The position numbers were made by a program, and so were the translations under genes. This document shows, one piece after another, positions 26,361 to 61,319 of a stretch of DNA of 64,000 nt. The number at the start of each line of letters is the position of its first letter. Position 1 is the first letter of the stretch. The notes under the pieces are model-generated. The model had not been told where the DNA came from, made no database searches, and saw only the letters and a program-made list of their open reading frames with translations. Location: positions 1,344,001 to 1,408,000 of the forward strand of contig CAUVXB020000002.1 of the NCBI GenBank assembly GCA_963555825.3, in the 5' to 3' direction. The stretch comes from Alphaproteobacteria bacterium (GTDB taxonomy: Bacteria > Pseudomonadota > Alphaproteobacteria > JAAXGF01).

Positions 26361-27275
26361 TCACGCCCCTGCGTGAGTCCGCCGATATGTCAGGCGCTTG
26401 CCGGTGATACCGCGTAGCGCCTCTGTGGCGCGTTCGGCGTCCATCACGTCGCGCGTGTTGTAGCGGAAGTCGAACTCGCCGAGATAGCGCTTGAGGTGCT
26501 TCTGGCTGACGTGCTGGTACACGCCATTGATGCCGCGCTTCATGATCTAAAAATAGTTCTCGACGGTGTTGGTGTGCCAGAACTTGCCGCGCACATACTC
26601 GTTAATCGAGTGATTGACGTGACCGTGGCCCGCGAACTCGCGCCCGACCTTGATGTACTGGCCGGCTTCATCCGTCATCAGGTATGACTTGCGGTCGATC
26701 TGGGTAACGAGGATGGGGCGTAGCGTCTTGGCGTTGACGCCAGGGACGTGGAACGAATGAACGCGACCCTCGCGCTCGACCAGTGCGAACACGGCCTCTT
26801 TCTTGGGCGGGGGTCCATAGGCGCTGTTCCTGGCCTTGCCGCCGACGAACGTCTCATCGGCCTCGACAACCTTGTTCTCGCCACCGACAGGGCCGGACAG
26901 GTCGGGGTTGTCGCGCATGGCTTCACGAATGCGATGCGCCATGAACCACGCGGTCTTGTACGTGACGCCCAGCATCCTATGAAGCTGGTGCGCCGACATG
27001 CCTTTCTTGCTCGCACAGATCAGGTGATTGGCGAGCAGCCACTTATGAAGCGGAACCTTGGAACGCTCGAACAACGTGCCGACAGTCACGGTGAACTGCT
27101 TGCGGCAGTCGGCGCAGAACCACAGACCGGGACGTGCCGACTTGCCCTTGATGCGATGCGCGTTATCAATGACGCCGCAGTGCGGGCAGATCGGGCCGTC
27201 AGGCCAGCGAATAGCCTCTAGATGCTTGCGAGCGGCGTTGACGTCGTTGAAGCGTTTGGCGGTTATGTCGTACAT
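26361..27275 (-). pseudogene. IS1595-family transposase with in-frame TAG (ENYF*IMKRG)
   Basis: CPHC/CADC zinc ribbon; EADETFVGG; TDE; NTVEN; YLGEFDFRYN. Confidence 0.9.
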
Positions 27276-27296
27276 GGCGCATCTCCTTGCTATCTA

Positions 27297-27338
27297 TAAG
27301 GTAATGCGTCCTGTGCGTTTGTCAAGTATATAGTCGCC
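27297..27338 (-). promoter_or_regulatory. IS1595 left end with a sigma70-like promoter
   Basis: Minus strand GGCGACTATATAC-TTGACA-16 nt-TACCTT, then AGGAG RBS before the transposase. Confidence 0.55.
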
Positions 27339-28421
27339 CTTGGTAGGGCGCGACAGGTTGGTGACGATGAAACCGACACGGGGAACCAGGTCGCCGGGGT
27401 GCCACTCCACTTTGGCCACGACACGGCGCTTCTTGTTCCACGATCCGGCCTGATAGCTGAAGCTGGCGTGGAAACGGCGAACATGGTCGGGCGGGCGACC
27501 GACAGGTCGCGTAAGCAGATGGGCAATGTTCCGCTGGAGAATCACGTTCGCTTTGAGGCGGATGACGTAGAGTAATCCCTCAGCTTCGAGATATTCGTAT
27601 ATCTCCGGTGAGGCGAAGGCGGCATCGCCACGAAAATACAGCCGCAGCTTCCTTTCCTTATAGCGCATCACCACCGGCTCCAGAACATTCCGCCACCGTC
27701 GGCACTGTGAACATTACCGGGGCGCAGGGAACATCTCTCCAAGTCGCCGAACTGGTTGAACACGAACAGCGGATGATAGCAGGAACACCCGAAGTGCCCG
27801 TTGTAGGCCGTGCCCTCCTGATCGCCATGGGTCGGGCTGACGGAGCTATCCATGTCGAGAATGATCATATTCGGCGGATGGCGGTCATGAACCTTGTCGA
27901 TCCACACCCCGTTCATGTCGGCCAAGGCTTCAACGTTCTCGTCGGTGGCCAATAGCTCCGTCTCGAAGCGTCCCATCTGGCTGGTGGAAGCGGCCTGTCT
28001 TTCGATGGCCTTGCCGCCGACAATCCAGCGCATGGCGGGATCACGACCCAGACGATCGGCATCGTTCACATCGTCATAGCCGCCAAGACGGCCAAAGACG
28101 GACTGAAGGAACTGCTCCGTTATGCCGTGCCATCCGTTCTTGCCGGTACGGCTGTCGTGGAAAACACCCTCGGCCATCTCAGTCAGGCCGAGGGCATCGT
28201 CAAGCTCCCGGTAGGCGAGCAACCCGGCATCAGAGGTGATCTTGGAACCGTGGAATTCAAGCTTCAAGCGACGGTCAAAAACGACCCGAAGGCACCCCTG
28301 TTTCGATTCACCCATCGGGTGTGCCATATCCGCCGCTCCATGCATGCTACAACTTCATGATTCTTATAGCAGAATAGCCTTCTCGCCGCACTGAATATCG
28401 ACGCTACTTGGGAAATGCGGG
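27339..28421 (-). mobile_element. Truncated, frameshifted IS1380-family element interrupted by IS1595
   Basis: TSDAGLL, LDMDSS, RGDAAF motifs; frameshift near 27695; end CCCGCATTTCCC; 3' part missing. Confidence 0.85.
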
Positions 28422-28475
28422 ATGAAGATGTTACCGAGTTCTCAATGCCTCGAAAGTCCGCTTCGGGTCCAGACT

Positions 28476-29088
28476 GTTCTCTAACTCGGGGGTTGGTTGT
28501 CAAGCTCTCCGTGACGTACCTGCCGGGTTCACTGTTCTCTCCGCGGTAGGGGCTCGGCCCTCCGCATGATGGCGTTGGAGGACGTTGGCGGATCAATGTG
28601 TGAAGCGCGCTTGCCTCGGTGAGGCATCGCAAAGCCTGGATCGATCTCGCCGACGCCGCCGTCCCGACAGGGACATCGGTTCTCTAACTCGGGGGTTGGT
28701 TGTCAAGCTCTCCGTGACGTACCTGCCGGGTTCACTGTTCTCTCCGCGGTAGGGGCTCGGCCCTCCGCATGATGGCGTTGGAGGACGTTGGCGGATCAAT
28801 GTGTGAAGCGCGCTTGCCTCGGTGAGGCATCGCAAAGCCTGGATCGATCTCGCCGACGCCGCCGTCCCGACAGGGACATCGGTTCTCTAACTCGGGGGTT
28901 GGTTGTCAAGCTCTCCGTGACGTACCTGCCGGGTTCACTGTTCTCTCCGCGGTAGGGGCTCGGCCCTCCGCATGATGGCGTTGGAGGACGTTGGCGGATC
29001 AATGTGTGAAGCGCGCTTGCCTCGGTGAGGCATCGCAAAGCCTGGATCGATCTCGCCGACGCCGCCGTCCCGACAGGGACATCGGTTC
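28476..29088. repeat. Three tandem 203-bp direct repeats
   Basis: Units start at 28476, 28679, 28882; GTTC microhomology at 29085. Confidence 0.97.
28905..29085 (-). ncRNA. Putative bridge/seekRNA (also in the other two repeat units); boundaries approximate
   Basis: Two hairpin-split loops whose flanks match target (TGTGTGAA, AGCCTGG) and donor (TGTTCTCT, ATGGCG). Confidence 0.7.
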
Positions 29089-29119
29089 CGCTCTCGCGGA
29101 ATGCTTGGACGTTGTTTCC

Positions 29120-30151
29120 CTATGCGGCCGCCTCCTTGGTTGACCAGATGAAGTCCGTTCCATCACGCCACATGCGATGGAGGATGACCGCCAGCTTCCG
29201 TGCCACGGCGATCTTGGCCTTCTTGAAGCCGATGCGTTTCCACAACCTGTGACCCCAGGCCTTGAGCGCGCACCATCGCGGCACCCGGGTGAGCAGCACG
29301 CCGGCCGCCTCGAAGAGGTAGGTCCTGAGCATTCGATCGCCGCATTTGGAGATCCGCCCCGTCCAATCGACCTCGCCGGAAGCATGGCGGCGCGGCGTCA
29401 GCCCGATGTACGCGCCGACACTCCGGGAACGTCGGAAGCGGCTCGGCTCGTCGATCGCCGAGTGGAAGGCCAAGGCGGTGATCGGCCCGATGCCTGGAAC
29501 CGTCATGGAACGTCTGCTGTCCTCGTCGTTCCGCGCCAGGCCCAGCAGCTTGCGATAGAGCGCGGCGATCTCTCGGCCGACCTTCTCGCGGACTTCCAGA
29601 AGGGGCCGAACGGCCTCCGACAAAAGACCCTGCCCGCCAAGCAGCTCTTCGACCCGGCGACGGAAGACATTGCCGCCCGCCTTGCCGATGACGAGGCCGA
29701 GGTTCTTGAGCAAGCCACGGATCTGGTTCTCGAGATCACGCTTGATCTTGACCAACTGGGCCCGGCTGTTCAGGACGGCCCGTATCTCGTGGCACGCCAC
29801 GCTCTTGACTTGGACCTCCTTGTACCAACCGCACTGCATGATCCGCGCGATCCCGGCGGCATCGTTCCGGTCGCTCTTGTTGATCTGCATCGACAGCGCC
29901 GCCTTGGCATGACGCGCATCGATGCAGATCACCGGCAAGCCGAGCGCCCTGAGCTCATGCCACAGCCAGGTCGTCGTCGGACCGGTCTCCAGACCGATGC
30001 GCTTTGCGTGCGGCGCCGTTGTCCTGATATACGCCGCGATTGCCGCCGGCTCCGAGATCACCACGCCCTCGGACACGATCTCGCCGTTGTCATCGACCAC
30101 GCAGATCGAGGTCTCCTTGAGCGATACATCCATTCCAACATACAGTTCCAT
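29120..30151 (-). CDS. IS110-family DEDD recombinase/transposase
   Basis: VGMDVS, GLE, KSDRNDA, PGIG, GLTP...ASG, ISKCGD, VARKL. Confidence 0.95.
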   Translation of the reverse strand: MELYVGMDVSLKETSICVVDDNGEIVSEGVVISEPAAIAAYIRTTAPHAKRIGLETGPTTTWLWHELRALGLPVICIDARHAKAALSMQINKSDRNDAAGIARIMQCGWYKEVQVKSVACHEIRAVLNSRAQLVKIKRDLENQIRGLLKNLGLVIGKAGGNVFRRRVEELLGGQGLLSEAVRPLLEVREKVGREIAALYRKLLGLARNDEDSRRSMTVPGIGPITALAFHSAIDEPSRFRRSRSVGAYIGLTPRRHASGEVDWTGRISKCGDRMLRTYLFEAAGVLLTRVPRWCALKAWGHRLWKRIGFKKAKIAVARKLAVILHRMWRDGTDFIWSTKEAAA

Positions 30152-30652
30152 AGCTGCTCTCCTGCTCTTTCAGTGTGCTCGCCCGGCCCATGCCGGTCGT
30201 TGCTACATTAAGGAGAGCAGTGCCCGATCCCCGAGTTACGCCATGTGTGAAAACGCCGGCGAATGCTACTAGCGAGGGAGTGTTCAGCATAATGTTCTAA
30301 ATCACCCTATTATAAGATGTTGATTTTGTTGAACTTGAAAATTCGAGAATCCAGAGAAAATCACGCCAAGAGCGCTCGGGAGCAGTTTTCACACAGCCTG
30401 GGTCAACAGCAGACCTCGGCGGCGTCATCACGCGGTGTCCGCTTTCGAGCGGTAAGCCGACGTCGAACGCCTTGTCCCGCGATCCAGCGTCTTTAAGGTC
30501 TGCTAACGAGCGGGAAGCGGACGCCGACGATCAGCCTCTCGTATGTCTGCTCATAGCCATCACCAGACATGCGGCATGCAGAGCGAGTTTGATTCGCGGG
30601 CCGGAACGGATATTCTGAGGCGCGGAACCAGTGGTCTTGCGGGGAACGTCCG

Positions 30653-31810
30653 ATGAAGACGTTCGTGCTTCCCGATCTCGGTGAGGGTCTGCACGAGGCG
30701 GAGATCGTCGCGTGGCACGTCAGCGCGGGCGACAGCGTCGTCGAGGACGACGTGATCGTCTCCGTCGAGACGGACAAGGCCGTGACCGAGGTGCCCGCCC
30801 CGTGGTCGGGGACGATCGCGCGGCTGTGCGCGGAGGTGGGCGACGTCATCAAGGTGGGCGACGCGATCGTCGCATACGCCGGCGACGACGACGACGATGG
30901 GGCCGTGCCGGAAGCGCGCCCGTCCGATGCGCGCTGGACGGTCGCCGGCGCCGGGACGCGCGTCGCCGCGCCGCAGCCGGGCGCGGGCGTCGCTGTCATG
31001 CCCGCCGTGCGGCTTCTTGCGGCAGAGTTCGACGTCGCGCTTGACGGTGTGACCGGCACCGGGCCCGACGGCGCGATCCTGGCGCGCGACGTCGCGCAAG
31101 CGGCCAAGACGCGCGCGACCCACGACACCGTTGCCGCCGGCGCCGAGCCGGGTGCCCCCGAGACGGTCGAGGAAGCGGCCGACTGGGAGCCACTGAGCGG
31201 GCCGCGCCGGACGATGGCGCGCAACATGGCGCGGGCGCATGCCGAGGTGGTTCCCGCCACGGTCCACGAGGAGGCGGACATCGGCGCGTGGGCTTCGGAC
31301 GAGGACGTGACGGTGAGGTTGGTCCGCGCGCTGTTGGCCGGCGTCGCCGCGGAACCGGCGCTCAATTGCTGGTTCGACGCGCAAAGAGGCCGCCTGGTGC
31401 ACGAGACGGTGGACGTCGGCATCGCGGTTGACACGCCGGCCGGCCTTTTTGTGCCGCCGCTTCGGGGCACCCAGGGCCTTGCCCCGAGCGCGCTGCGCGG
31501 CGAGCTGGACCGCCTCGTGTCGGGTGCGCGGAACCGTTCGCTTTCGGCGGGCGAGCTCAAGGGTGCGACGATCACGCTCAGCAACTATGGCGCCATTGCC
31601 GGGCTTCACGCGACGCCGGTCGTGATGCCGCCCCAGGTCGCGATCCTCGGCGCCGGCCGATCGCGCGCGCAGGTGATTGCCGGCGACGACGGGCCCGTCG
31701 TCGGCCGCGTGCTGCCACTATCGCTCAGCTACGACCATCGTGCCGTGACGGGCGGCGAGGCGGCCCGGTTCATCCGCGCCGTCGTCGCGGATCTGACAAT
31801 GGCGGACTAG
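30653..31810 (+). CDS. 2-oxoacid dehydrogenase E2 (dihydrolipoamide acyltransferase)
   Basis: Lipoyl ETDKA; GTGPDG; TLSNYG; YDHR. Confidence 0.9.
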   Translation: MKTFVLPDLGEGLHEAEIVAWHVSAGDSVVEDDVIVSVETDKAVTEVPAPWSGTIARLCAEVGDVIKVGDAIVAYAGDDDDDGAVPEARPSDARWTVAGAGTRVAAPQPGAGVAVMPAVRLLAAEFDVALDGVTGTGPDGAILARDVAQAAKTRATHDTVAAGAEPGAPETVEEAADWEPLSGPRRTMARNMARAHAEVVPATVHEEADIGAWASDEDVTVRLVRALLAGVAAEPALNCWFDAQRGRLVHETVDVGIAVDTPAGLFVPPLRGTQGLAPSALRGELDRLVSGARNRSLSAGELKGATITLSNYGAIAGLHATPVVMPPQVAILGAGRSRAQVIAGDDGPVVGRVLPLSLSYDHRAVTGGEAARFIRAVVADLTMAD

Positions 31811-58802: not shown

Positions 58803-59073
58803 CATGTGTGGACGGCTCCCTGTTGGCAAGAGATTTTGTGACGTTGATGCAAGCTGGTCGGGTGCTGCCATGTGTGGACGGCTCCCTGTTGGCAAGAGAT
58901 TTTGTGACGTTGATGCAAGCTGGTCGGGTGCTGCCATGTGTGGACGGCTCCCTGTTGGCAAGAGATTTTGTGACGTTGATGCAAGCTGGTCGGGTGCTGC
59001 CATGTGTGGACGGCTCCCTGTTGGCAAGAGATTTTGTGACGTTGATGCAAGCTGGTCGGGTGCTGCCATGTGT
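58803..59073. repeat. Four tandem 66-bp repeats of the IS110 end
   Basis: Units start at 58803, 58869, 58935, 59001; CATGTGT microhomology at 59067. Confidence 0.97.
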
Positions 59074-60744
59074 CCGGCCTTTTGGTGCGGCGTACATGGC
59101 CGCTGGCCCTAATGCGATCCGCGGGGTCGGGTCCCAGTCATAAGCACGCGCTCGAGGCGCCGTGGCTATAGCGGGTTTTCCCGATCCTCGGTTCGACCGA
59201 TTTTGCATTACGTCACTTACACTCCGCCAAACTCGTGAACGCCTTGTTTTCGTCGGCCTAGGCCGTCGCGGGCCTGCGATAGGTTCCGCCATGTCTCAGA
59301 AGCGCCCAGGCAATGCGGGCGTTCTTGTTGGCCAGCGCCACGGCCGCGACCTTGGTCGGCTTGTCGGCGATGATGTTGGCAAGCCATGGATCGGTCGTGC
59401 CGCGTCGCTTGGCGTGGCGGATGACCGTCATGGCGCCGGCGACCAGCAGCCAGCGCAGGTATTGATCGCCCTGCTTGGAGATCCGCCCCATGCGCTCCTT
59501 GCCACCGGTCGAGTTCTGTCTTGGCACCAGCCCGATCCAAGCGGCCATTGAGCGGCCCGATTTGAAGATCGACGGATTGGCAATCGAAGATGCCAGCGCG
59601 CTCGCCGTGATCGGTCCGATGCCGGGTGTGGTTTCGAGACGCAGGCTCTCTTCGTTCGTCCGGTGCCAGGCGTGGATACGCCTCTCAGCGCCGACGATCT
59701 CCCGCTCCAGCGACAGCAACTGCCGCGCCAGCCCTTCCAGGCAAGTCCGCGCCAGGGGCGGAATGCGCTCATCCGCCTCATCGCTGATCACCGCGAGCAG
59801 CTCCTTGACCTGCGGCAACCCGGTTCGCGCCACCACCCCGAACTCCGCCATGTGCGCCCGCGTAGCGTTGACCATGTGTGGACGGCTCCCTGTTGGCAAG
59901 AGATTTTGTGACGTTGATGCAAGCTGGTCGGGTGCTGCCATGTGTCCGGCCTTTTGGTGCGGCGTACATGGCCGCTGGCCCTAATGCGATCCGCGGGGTC
60001 GGGTCCCAGTCATAAGCACGCGCTCGAGGCGCCGTGGCTATAGCGGGTTTTCCCGATCCTCGGTTCGACCGATTTTGCATTACGTCACTTACACTCCGCC
60101 AAACTCGTGAACGCCTTGTTTTCGTCGGCCTAGGCCGTCGCGGGCCTGCGATAGGTTCCGCCATGTCTCAGAAGCGCCCAGGCAATGCGGGCGTTCTTGT
60201 TGGCCAGCGCCACGGCCGCGACCTTGGTCGGCTTGTCGGCGATGATGTTGGCAAGCCATGGATCGGTCGTGCCGCGTCGCTTGGCGTGGCGGATGACCGT
60301 CATGGCGCCGGCGACCAGCAGCCAGCGCAGGTATTGATCGCCCTGCTTGGAGATCCGCCCCATGCGCTCCTTGCCACCGGTCGAGTTCTGTCTTGGCACC
60401 AGCCCGATCCAAGCGGCCATTGAGCGGCCCGATTTGAAGATCGACGGATTGGCAATCGAAGATGCCAGCGCGCTCGCCGTGATCGGTCCGATGCCGGGTG
60501 TGGTTTCGAGACGCAGGCTCTCTTCGTTCGTCCGGTGCCAGGCGTGGATACGCCTCTCAGCGCCGACGATCTCCCGCTCCAGCGACAGCAACTGCCGCGC
60601 CAGCCCTTCCAGGCAAGTCCGCGCCAGGGGCGGAATGCGCTCATCCGCCTCATCGCTGATCACCGCGAGCAGCTCCTTGACCTGCGGCAACCCGGTTCGC
60701 GCCACCACCCCGAACTCCGCCATGTGCGCCCGCGTAGCGTTGAC
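59001..60744. repeat. 872-bp tandem duplication (IS110 non-coding end plus 3' part of the transposase)
   Basis: 59001-59872 equals 59873-60744; duplicated ORF translations. Confidence 0.95.
59900..60070 (-). ncRNA. Putative bridge/seekRNA (second copy near 59030-59200); boundaries approximate
   Basis: Loops carrying CATGTGT/ATGCG (donor-like) and CATAAGCA/TGGCT (target-like). Confidence 0.55.
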
Positions 60745-61152
60745 CAGCATGGTTCTCTGGCGGACCAGAAGCTCGCGCGTTCGGTGCAGCATCAGAACGC
60801 TCTGCTGCTCGACGCTCTTCACCGCGACAAAGCGCATCGTCGGGCGCGTGACGGCCTCGCAAATAGCCTCCGCATCGGCAGCGTCATTCTTGTTCCGCTT
60901 CACGTAGGGCTTCACATAGCGCGGCGGCATCAGCTTGACCTCATGCCCAAGCGCCGCGATCTCCCGCGCCCAGTAATGCGCGGTCGCACATGCCTCCATA
61001 CCAACCAGGCAGGGCGGCTGTTTCTCGAAGAAGGCCAGCACCTGACGCCGCCTCAACTGACGGCGGACGACCACGGTTCCCTCGGCGTCAACGCCATGCA
61101 CCTGAAATACGTTCTTCGCAAGATCAACACCGATCGTGATAACTTCGTTCAT
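60130..61152 (-). CDS. IS110-family DEDD recombinase/transposase
   Basis: GVDLAK, MEAC, KNDAADA, GLVPRQNSTGG, ANKNAR. Confidence 0.95.
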   Translation of the reverse strand: MNEVITIGVDLAKNVFQVHGVDAEGTVVVRRQLRRRQVLAFFEKQPPCLVGMEACATAHYWAREIAALGHEVKLMPPRYVKPYVKRNKNDAADAEAICEAVTRPTMRFVAVKSVEQQSVLMLHRTRELLVRQRTMLVNATRAHMAEFGVVARTGLPQVKELLAVISDEADERIPPLARTCLEGLARQLLSLEREIVGAERRIHAWHRTNEESLRLETTPGIGPITASALASSIANPSIFKSGRSMAAWIGLVPRQNSTGGKERMGRISKQGDQYLRWLLVAGAMTVIRHAKRRGTTDPWLANIIADKPTKVAAVALANKNARIAWALLRHGGTYRRPATA

Positions 61153-61319
61153 GGACGGCTCCTATTTCCCTGTGGTTCATCGAAACCACCATTTTGGCAC
61201 CTAGATGCCTGCGGGTGGGAGCCGTCCACCGCATCATGAGCAGACATTCCGAGGATTCCCTCCGCGCATAGATTCTTCCACTGCGACTCGCTAATCTCGC
61301 TGGCAAGGGAGGACGTCAC

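Follow-up and report, generated by a model that had tools for sequence, protein, structure and literature searches.

Introduction

According to the description by Siddiquee et al. (2024, PMC11187229), insertion sequences (ISs) of the IS1111 group encode a transposase of 330–350 amino acids (aa) that contains the motif GL-P----S(T)G, and a seekRNA in which the top-strand match lies 5′ of the bottom-strand match. Tandem loci of the related IS110 elements, as Hu et al. (10.64898/2026.08.14.744561) define them in their main text, consist of adjacent repeats on the same strand that are at least 50 bp long and at least 95% identical, present in at least two copies and located by a transposase gene; the same authors write the junctions that exist after insertion as LT/RD and LD/RT, and report for IS110 loci partial circles that reuse one terminus and re-integrate. 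IS621 is described as recombining substrates in which only the core and one arm match its bridge RNA (Xie et al., 10.64898/2026.08.31.748434), and ISPpu9 as excising at alternative core dinucleotides and as occurring with tandem ssr9 modules (Pares-Guillen et al. 2025, PMC12288879). Here we analyze a stretch of 64,000 nt of alphaproteobacterial DNA (hereafter the window; positions are those of the window, and positions elsewhere in the genome carry the prefix C1 or C2) in which the right end of an IS1111-type member of the IS110 family is present three times in tandem, at 28476–29088 on the minus strand. We propose that this array is probably a by-product of the element's own recombinase acting at a donor arm and the core, and not a purpose-built guide array.

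Results

Three tandem copies of the right end of an IS1111-type element

Tandem Repeats Finder (TRF) reported 28476–29088 as a repeat of period 203 with 3.0 copies, 100% matches and 0% indels (score 1226), and a repeat search of the window returned three 207-nt copies, 100% identical, at a spacing of 203 bp; the excess of 4 nt over 203 is GTTC, which opens each unit and also comes after the last one. An earlier reading made from the letters of the window (the sequence-only reading) had described three identical 203-bp units that start at the IS end and share GTTC as the only microhomology at their junction, and in the assembly we found exactly this. The junction from one unit to the next reads ...GACATCG/GTTCTCTAAC (a slash marks the joint here and below), and unit 3 runs on as ...GACATCG/GTTCCGCTC. 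The sequence that opens each unit, GTTCTCTAACTC, is the exact start of the five other copies of the element in the genome, the ends of the element having been set by aligning the six full copies in the window's own genome (two contigs, 6.04 Mb, 99.3% completeness). The canonical element is 1365 bp long, with its ends in the window at 28882 and 30246 and GT at both junctions, and contains one 203-bp unit. Each unit ends at the exact right terminus, and its inner side has the core and 2 nt (GTTC) in common with that terminus. The array adjoins the transposase gene on its 3′ side, 31 nt from the stop codon, and as same-strand repeats of 203 bp at 100% identity in 3.0 copies beside such a gene its units are of the kind that the rule of Hu et al. 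detects. The parts of the element in the window are the following.

28476–28678, minus strand: unit 1, outermost, 203 bp, with the right end (RE), subterminal inverted repeat (IR), donor-binding loop, target-binding loop and hairpin 2.
28679–28881, minus strand: unit 2, identical to unit 1.
28882–29084, minus strand: unit 3, the terminal 203 bp of the 1365-bp canonical IS, present in all other genomic copies.
29085–29088: GTTC common to the IS terminus and the internal breakpoint; the core dinucleotide GT of the junction is 29085–29086.
29120–30151, minus strand: transposase/recombinase gene, 343 aa, intact, with DEDD_Tnp_IS110 and Transposase_20 domains and the motif GLTPRRHASG.
30224–30246: left end, with the subterminal IR (30224–30238), CGCCAT and the core GT (30245–30246).

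The 343-aa open reading frame (ORF) matches PF01548 (DEDD_Tnp_IS110; E 1.7e-16, 60.9 bits, cut-off 29) and PF02371 (Transposase_20; E 1.8e-22, 80 bits, cut-off 21.3), and has both the length and the motif (within ...YIGLTPRRHASGEV...) that are given for the IS1111 group. A subterminal IR found in every unit, TAACTCGGGGGTTGG, pairs with CCGATCCCCGAGTTA at 30224–30238 over 15 nt (87%, with a perfect 10-nt core), the in-unit partner of 30224–30238 being TAACTCGGGG, and the subterminal IRs sit 6 nt inside each element end. Downstream of the gene the canonical copy has a long non-coding region of 238 nt, from the stop (29120) to the right end (28882), and 95 nt separate the left end from the start codon. 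Judged by these features, the element is an IS1111-type member of the IS110 family.

A predicted guide RNA module in every unit

We aligned the non-coding region of this element with those of 44 relatives, taken from 66 distinct regions of 80 loci found through their transposases. In the structure computed by RNAalifold, hairpin 2 is followed by a long stem, which has an internal loop and is capped by an apical hairpin, and then by a second stem with an internal loop. Across the 45 sequences, 98.9% of the cells at its 42 pairs (in 7 helices) were paired, as opposed to 40–45% when the partners were slid by 1–3 columns; compensatory changes occurred at 5 pairs, as opposed to 1.8 ± 0.8 in shuffles, none of 500 of which scored as high. 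The variable parts of the non-coding region are the strands of the loops, and these match the flanks and the IS ends. Hairpin 1 and the putative guide segments are located as follows.

29086–29101, minus strand: hairpin 1 (TTCCGC-TCTC-GCGGAA), single and outside the repeat.
29037–29049, minus strand (copies at 28834–28846 and 28631–28643): target guide 1, RNA ..GAUCCAGGCUUU.., which matches the left-flank motif TCCAGGCT.
29000–29013, minus strand (copies at 28797–28810 and 28594–28607): target guide 2, RNA ..CUUCACACAUUG.., which matches the left-end flank (TTTCACAC/AT).
28975–28984, minus strand (copies at 28772–28781 and 28569–28578): donor guide, RNA ..CCAACGCCAU.., the complement of ATGGCGT, with which the left end begins.
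28938–28948, minus strand (copies at 28735–28745 and 28532–28542): donor guide, RNA ..GGAGAGAACAG.., in the same sense as AGAGAAC, with which the right end closes.

Guide 1, as RNA UCCAGGCU, equals the left-flank motif and pairs with AGCCTGGA in the top strand of the flank at the right end; guide 2 (UUCACAC) has the sequence of the top strand in the flank at the left end. Guide 1 and the flank covaried among the relatives, with a mean longest match of 5.55 nt as opposed to 4.14 ± 0.20 when the pairing was shuffled (maximum 4.89 in 500 shuffles). The donor guide ACGCCAU, the complement of the left end ATGGCGT, lies in the internal loop of helix 5/6. Both the order of the guides and their matches to both target strands and to both element ends agree with what is described for IS1111 seekRNAs, and each 203-bp unit is, by prediction, a full two-loop seekRNA- or bridge-RNA-like module together with the subterminal repeat and the right end. 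The units had been called complete in the sequence-only reading, which holds for the IR, the four guide-like segments and hairpin 2, but not for hairpin 1, which stands once, outside the repeat, and which covaries in relatives by eye, unscored (TTCCGCGAGAGCGGAA, TCCCGCC..GGCGGGA and TCCTGCC..GGCAGGA). Rfam gave no match at E ≤ 1 in 27500–31000, and Rfam 15 possibly contains no IS1111-type seekRNA model. A promoter and terminator scan of 28300–30400 found no promoter-like site and three terminator-like sites, all of them outside the units. The units abut and have no spacers between them, and so are not a CRISPR array, as the earlier reading had also concluded.

Right-end duplications in sister copies

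Four of the six full copies in the genome carry tandem partial copies of the right end, and the length differs at each of them.

C1:1666187: 23-bp right-end duplication.
C1:936503: 122-bp right-end duplication.
Window: 203-bp duplication, two extra units.
C1:345594: 630-bp partial copy, reaching into the transposase gene.

In each of these four copies the junction links base 1 of the IS, as outer breakpoint, to a GT at the inner breakpoint; since GT occupies 66 of the 1365 positions, the chance of four out of four is 5.5e-6. At three of these loci the homology at the junction is only 2 nt. In the locus C1:345594, the 630-bp partial copy has A198/C254 and the adjoining full copy has G198/T254, of which T254 is common to another copy. 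These differences indicate that the two parts come from different copies, and they exclude, at this locus, slippage within one copy or an exchange between equal sisters. The transposase gene is intact in three copies, and all three are duplicated. The only two copies that lack a right-end duplication, C2:3487056 and C2:2018216, share a 2-bp deletion (positions 924–925) that truncates the transposase at 137 aa. In the copy at C1:936503, which has the 122-bp duplication, the gene is broken by a 34-bp insert (C1:935247–935280). This insert is a terminal segment of another element that is present 39 more times in the genome, and resembles a footprint left by that element or the result of a one-ended event.

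Solo fragments of the right end occur at C2:2842355–2842537 (88% identical to bases 1–183) and C2:840560–840645 (91% identical to bases 1–86); both derive from a variant whose target guide is different, and their flanks are ...GCCGAGGCT/GCCGAGGCC. No solo 203-bp unit is present in the genome at 95% identity or more, and all of the 100% hits are at IS copies. These data bear on whether the 203-bp unit could be a separate miniature mobile module, like MITEPpu9/ssr9, that excises as a minicircle and re-inserts beside the IS. A precedent is found in ISPpu9, for which both ssr9-only minicircles and tandem ssr9 copies are described (PMC12288879), as well as in the partial circles of IS110 loci that reuse one terminus and re-integrate (10.64898/2026.08.14.744561), and a weak, gapped resemblance of the inner boundary to the left end can be seen by eye (CCGTCCCGA compared with CCGATCCCCGA). 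However, in an ungapped comparison none of the 10 nt to the left of the 203 site is identical to the left end, the only solo fragments are the 88–91% remnants of the other variant, and the 23-bp unit cannot be a circle yet follows the same junction rule. With no left-end likeness at the inner boundary and no solo unit at 95% identity or more in the genome, we set a MITEPpu9-like module aside, and we consider a mobile 203-bp module of any such kind unlikely.

The same junction rule in a second element and in a relative

The genome has 46 PF01548 matches, and the 2.5 kb around each was scanned for tandem repeats (TRF, period at least 20, at least 90% matches). Tandems were present at eight of the 46 loci, four of them belonging to the element described above and four to a second 1365-bp IS1111-type element, here called IS-B, which has five copies in the genome, arrays at four of the five, and a transposase 32% identical to that of the first element. 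One of the IS-B copies lies in the window.

58803–61236, minus strand: IS-B in the window, with a 340-aa transposase ORF (60130–61152) and the full copy at 59872–61236.

Here the full copy is followed by one partial copy of ~874 bp and then by three 66-bp right-end units, all joined at TG; another IS-B array consists of the full copy + 136 + 136 + 96 + 96. In 16 of 16 parsed junctions, a count that leaves out some shorter units (22–26 nt, unparsed), the exact right end of IS-B (...CCACACATG) is joined to an internal site preceded by the core TG. Six distinct inner breakpoints are involved, and with TG at 96 of 1366 positions the chance of this is ~1e-7. Three other IS-B arrays, at C1:169.6–171.4 kb, C1:2233.7–2235.9 kb and C2:2096.6–2099.7 kb, are even more complex.

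A survey by transposase, in which 80 of 229 relatives were kept and 14 loci were then dropped (no right-end motif in range, or duplicates), yielded the 66 distinct non-coding regions, 63 of which have a flank of at least 30 nt. One relative, L095, on a long contig of an uncultured alphaproteobacterium, has a transposase 71% identical and a right end duplicated as a 142-bp repeat (2.0 copies, 100% identity), which is joined at the same core, has the exact terminus as its outer breakpoint and lacks guide 1 in its unit. A second candidate, in which the flank of L098 matched the body of L069 at 84%, was inverted and was rejected as a tandem.

The consistency of these junctions is difficult to reconcile with an origin independent of the recombinase, by replication slippage or template switching at GTTC followed by unequal crossing-over. 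Such an origin would draw on the 4-nt microhomology at the junction in the window, and the perfect identity of the units fits a recent event. But the exact IS terminus is used at 4/4 loci, in L095 and at 16/16 IS-B junctions, with the other breakpoint always at the core; three of the four loci have only the 2 nt of homology; and the parts of the locus at C1:345594 are different alleles. We regard slippage or template switching as highly improbable.

The same comparison speaks to the possibility that the triplication is kept by selection, either for a higher dose of seekRNA or for spare copies that diverge to new targets, both of which uses the sequence-only reading had suggested. Each unit contains both guide loops, all three copies with an intact transposase carry some duplication, and guide dose in tandem units is not discussed in the main text of Hu et al. 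(10.64898/2026.08.14.744561). Yet the units are 100% identical, with zero divergence among them, so that nothing has diversified. The 23- and 122-bp sister duplications are too short to encode the full guide set, the 66–140-bp units of IS-B lack the target loop and the 142-bp unit of L095 lacks guide 1; moreover, the extra units in the window lack hairpin 1 and, in the scan described above, contain neither a promoter-like nor a terminator-like site. The different length of the duplication at every locus points to independent accidents rather than to the spread of a favoured form. Selection for the array is, in our view, very unlikely, and these results support neither the dose nor the diversification that had been suggested.

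Inner breakpoints and guide-encoding DNA

All 64 usable GT sites of the element were scored for likeness to either half of the target and to both IS ends. The inner site of the 122-bp duplication was the only one used that stood out; the 23, 203 and 630 sites did not. Self-targeting through a full guide match was considered and dropped in favour of a match of the core and one arm. The 122 site ranked first of the 64 for likeness to the left-end junction (CAAT/GT/GTGAAGCG compared with CCAT/GT/GTGAAAAC), and its GT is the core-equivalent GT of guide 2. In IS-B, the 66-bp units break inside GGACACATG, a segment that mimics the IS-B right end CCACACATG.

These two cases raise the possibility, which we advance tentatively and think somewhat doubtful, that guide-encoding DNA may itself be a self-target that seeds right-end tandem arrays. 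A guide is copied from DNA, and the DNA that encodes it would be a perfect half-site (core and one arm) for the element's own ribonucleoprotein, so that such elements would have built-in self-targets; these would have no protection of the kind that a protospacer-adjacent motif (PAM) provides. If this were true, the growth of arrays would be an intrinsic 'autoimmunity' of bridge- and seekRNA elements, and the high rate of duplication in this genome (8/11 copies of the two elements) would point to a missing safeguard in the host or in the element.

Support for the array in sequencing data

Twenty-four runs match the stretch, none of them recorded as RNA, and four (X1, X15, X17 and X18) were examined as assembled Logan contigs. 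In these runs the array was represented by short pieces with no joints; X18 has depth around 28642–28723. Tandem copy number is prone to assembler error, and together with the lack of a Logan contig that demonstrably bridges a unit junction this leaves some room for an assembly artefact, with one unit at the true locus. Against an artefact stand the state of the genome (two contigs, 99.3% completeness), the similar structure in the independent long-contig assembly of L095, and at least eleven distinct junctions in two unrelated elements, all of which join the exact terminus to the core, as an assembler has no reason to do. We judge an artefact quite unlikely, although the copy number (two, three or more) could be wrong even if the junction is real.

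Apart from the array, X18 contains a contig of another organism that, at window place 28602, passes from IS base 127 into the right arm of the target (TGAAAACTGCTTCC...). This single contig fits a joint between IS bases 1–124 and a target that is otherwise empty, made at the GT that neighbours the 122 site.

The target site and neighbouring mobile elements

All six copies lie between ...AGGCT and GTGT[A/G]AAAAC, with GT at both ends. The left motif is ..GGGTCCAGGCT at four copies and GGGTCCAGACT at the window copy; in its longer form (..GTC.GC....GGGTCCAGGCT) it flanks four of the five other genomic copies, the fifth retaining only ...AGGCT. The general site of the six copies can be written ...GGGTCCAGGCT/GT/GTAAAAAC.... 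The genome contains 66 target-like sites with up to four mismatches and two unoccupied exact sites, and loci in metagenomes are flanked by the last-base variants ...AGGCT, ...AGGGT and ...AGACT. The target is the terminal inverted repeat of an element of ~170 bp that resembles a miniature inverted-repeat transposable element (MITE) and also that of a 1.7-kb IS whose DDE transposase is of the IS5/IS1182 type. In the window its halves are these.

28452–28475: left flank, formed by the MITE-like element's terminal inverted repeat (outer half), which is also the left half of the IS target (...GTCCGCTTCGGGTCCAGACT).
30247–30420: remainder of the MITE-like target (GTGAAAACGCC ... GCAGTTTTCACAC AGCCTGGGTCA), the other end of which is an unoccupied copy of the target.

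The 1.7-kb IS at C1:853840–855534 (locus L237) matches PF13751, PF05598 and PF01609, and its terminal inverted repeats carry the target motif; about ten more pairs of ends of this IS lie 1694 bp apart in the genome, and one end lies at ~34820 of the window. Older, diverged remnants (75–91% identity) of related IS1111-type elements adjoin copies at C1:1664380–1664810 and C1:346225–346600, and one such remnant is at the opposite end of the same MITE as the present copy; these sites have been hit repeatedly. Beside the IS, broken mobile elements are nested at 26547–28426. There, a transposase gene of IS1380 type (DDE_Tnp_1_4) is split into two frames (27294–27674 and 27668–28345) and is cut by a gene of IS1595 type (26547–27275), and the IS1380-like part has a very high contig depth in the Logan runs, ending near 28421–28427.

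Discussion

That the recombinase was the cause of the array we infer from the rules of the exact terminus and the core, from the allele difference at C1:345594, and from the recurrence of the same structure in two distant elements. The recombinase would normally act at a two-base core (here GT) between a donor arm and a target arm. In the reaction that we consider likely, the authentic RE arm and core were joined, in a one-armed 'half-match' reaction, to a GT lying 203 bp within the element; the right-end arm retained here is, by our reading, the LD arm of Hu et al. Four routes could lead to the duplication. The right-end junction of one copy, or of a sister, could exchange with the internal core site of another; a circle could insert into an internal site, with subsequent homologous recombination between the long repeats; a tandem dimer could undergo a deletion; or a partial circle or a second copy could re-enter at the occupied right-end junction. 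Exchange or re-entry would leave the bases 1–203 followed by the bases 1–1365. For the 23-bp duplication the length of the unit rules out a circle. The third unit would have arisen when the event recurred or when the 203-bp repeats crossed over unequally. Two further reports (PMC13626964 and 10.1101/2025.10.25.684509) concern, in their main lines, excision and copy-out, and leave this reading unchanged.

Several observations weigh against this proposal. The step from two units to three may have been ordinary homologous recombination. The core aside, the internal sites resemble neither the target nor the ends: the 203 site ranks low in every likeness scored, with fractions of 0.89 and 0.98 of the GT sites scoring at least as high for likeness to the target and to the left-end junction, respectively, and the most target-like GT sites (positions 886 and 596) are unused. 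Tandem non-coding regions elsewhere, for which the sequence-only reading had proposed a search, do exist, L095 having one, but they are rare: only this one of the 63 relatives with a usable right flank has an IS-internal sequence there. The 40 genomes of the same family that were searched are mostly fragmented assemblies without the element. A metagenome scan with the 21-nt right end gave 108 stretches, and in none of the 80 listed did the left flank hit the IS, each having one right-end match and target-like flanks; only 22 of these 80 contigs reach 250 nt or more into the IS, which makes this a weak test for 203-bp arrays. No tandem lies near the other 38 of the 46 IS110-family transposase matches of the genome. 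The rate of duplication in this genome (8/11 copies) stands apart from that in relatives, which are rarely duplicated. Finally, the count of three units rests on the assembly, since in the four Logan runs no contig demonstrably bridges a unit junction.

The array has no demonstrated function. As a side effect it would offer three alternative right ends for excision, and the suggestion of the earlier reading that the units could act as alternative excision points is plausible, each unit supplying an extra right end; if read through from the transposase promoter, the array could also place up to three guide modules on one transcript. Its wider interest lies elsewhere. Bridge- and seekRNA recombinases are under development as programmable genome editors, and half-match recombination is the main known source of their off-target events. 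This genome would be a compact natural record of the half-match reaction in the less studied IS1111 branch, with at least ten independent junctions, in two distant elements, that preserve only the exact right end together with the core dinucleotide, and some of which fall in guide-encoding DNA. It offers testable material on the choice of the second site, on why the right (LD) arm duplicates in place, and on why some hosts accumulate arrays.

Among known systems, IS4321 and IS5075 of the IS1111 family, as reportedly found by Partridge and Hall in 2003, insert in the terminal inverted repeats of Tn21-family transposons. They resemble the present element in targeting a terminal inverted repeat that belongs to another mobile element, in the present case an IS5/IS1182-like IS and its MITE derivatives, but differ in the target sequence and in the host elements; we know of no tandem ends in IS4321 or IS5075. 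CRISPR arrays likewise combine tandem repeats with an RNA-guided system, but here there are no spacers, and each of the abutting 203-bp units is, by prediction, a whole guide module with a transposon end.

ISEc11, ISPa11 and ISKpn4, in the published description of Siddiquee et al. (2024, PMC11187229), have in common with this element a DEDD transposase of 330–350 aa with the motif GL-P----S/TG, subterminal inverted repeats, a long downstream non-coding region, two short guides and a specific target in a repeated element. They differ in that one non-coding region is described for them, whereas here the last 203 bp occur three times, and in that RNA, circles and activity have been demonstrated for them, whereas the present element is known from its sequence. 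The IS110-family element ISPpu9 of Pseudomonas putida, with MITEPpu9, is likewise found in repeated palindromic elements and has a downstream small-RNA module that can be duplicated in tandem, as well as an invariant dinucleotide with alternatives used when the ends are altered (Pares-Guillen et al. 2025, PMC12288879). In that account, however, ssr9 is a separate module that has both end boxes, occurs solo and is dispensable for transposition, whereas the unit here belongs to the guide region of the element itself and lacks both a left-end-like box and solo copies.

The closest likeness in the position of the units is to the IS110 tandem loci of Hu et al. (10.64898/2026.08.14.744561), in which units also lie beside the transposase gene and one authentic donor arm (LD) is kept, the other side of the unit boundary showing nothing recognisable; a requirement for the core and duplication in place by the resident recombinase are shared with the accounts of both Hu et al. 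and Xie et al. (10.64898/2026.08.31.748434). The main text of Hu et al. on 468 cases makes no mention of IS1111. The present locus differs from theirs in that each unit would be a whole two-loop guide module and in that two elements, with transposases 32% identical, are involved, at 8/11 copies of one genome. Rather than as a new kind of system, the array is best read as what appears to be a clean example of the recently described half-match by-product, on the seekRNA side of IS1111-type elements.

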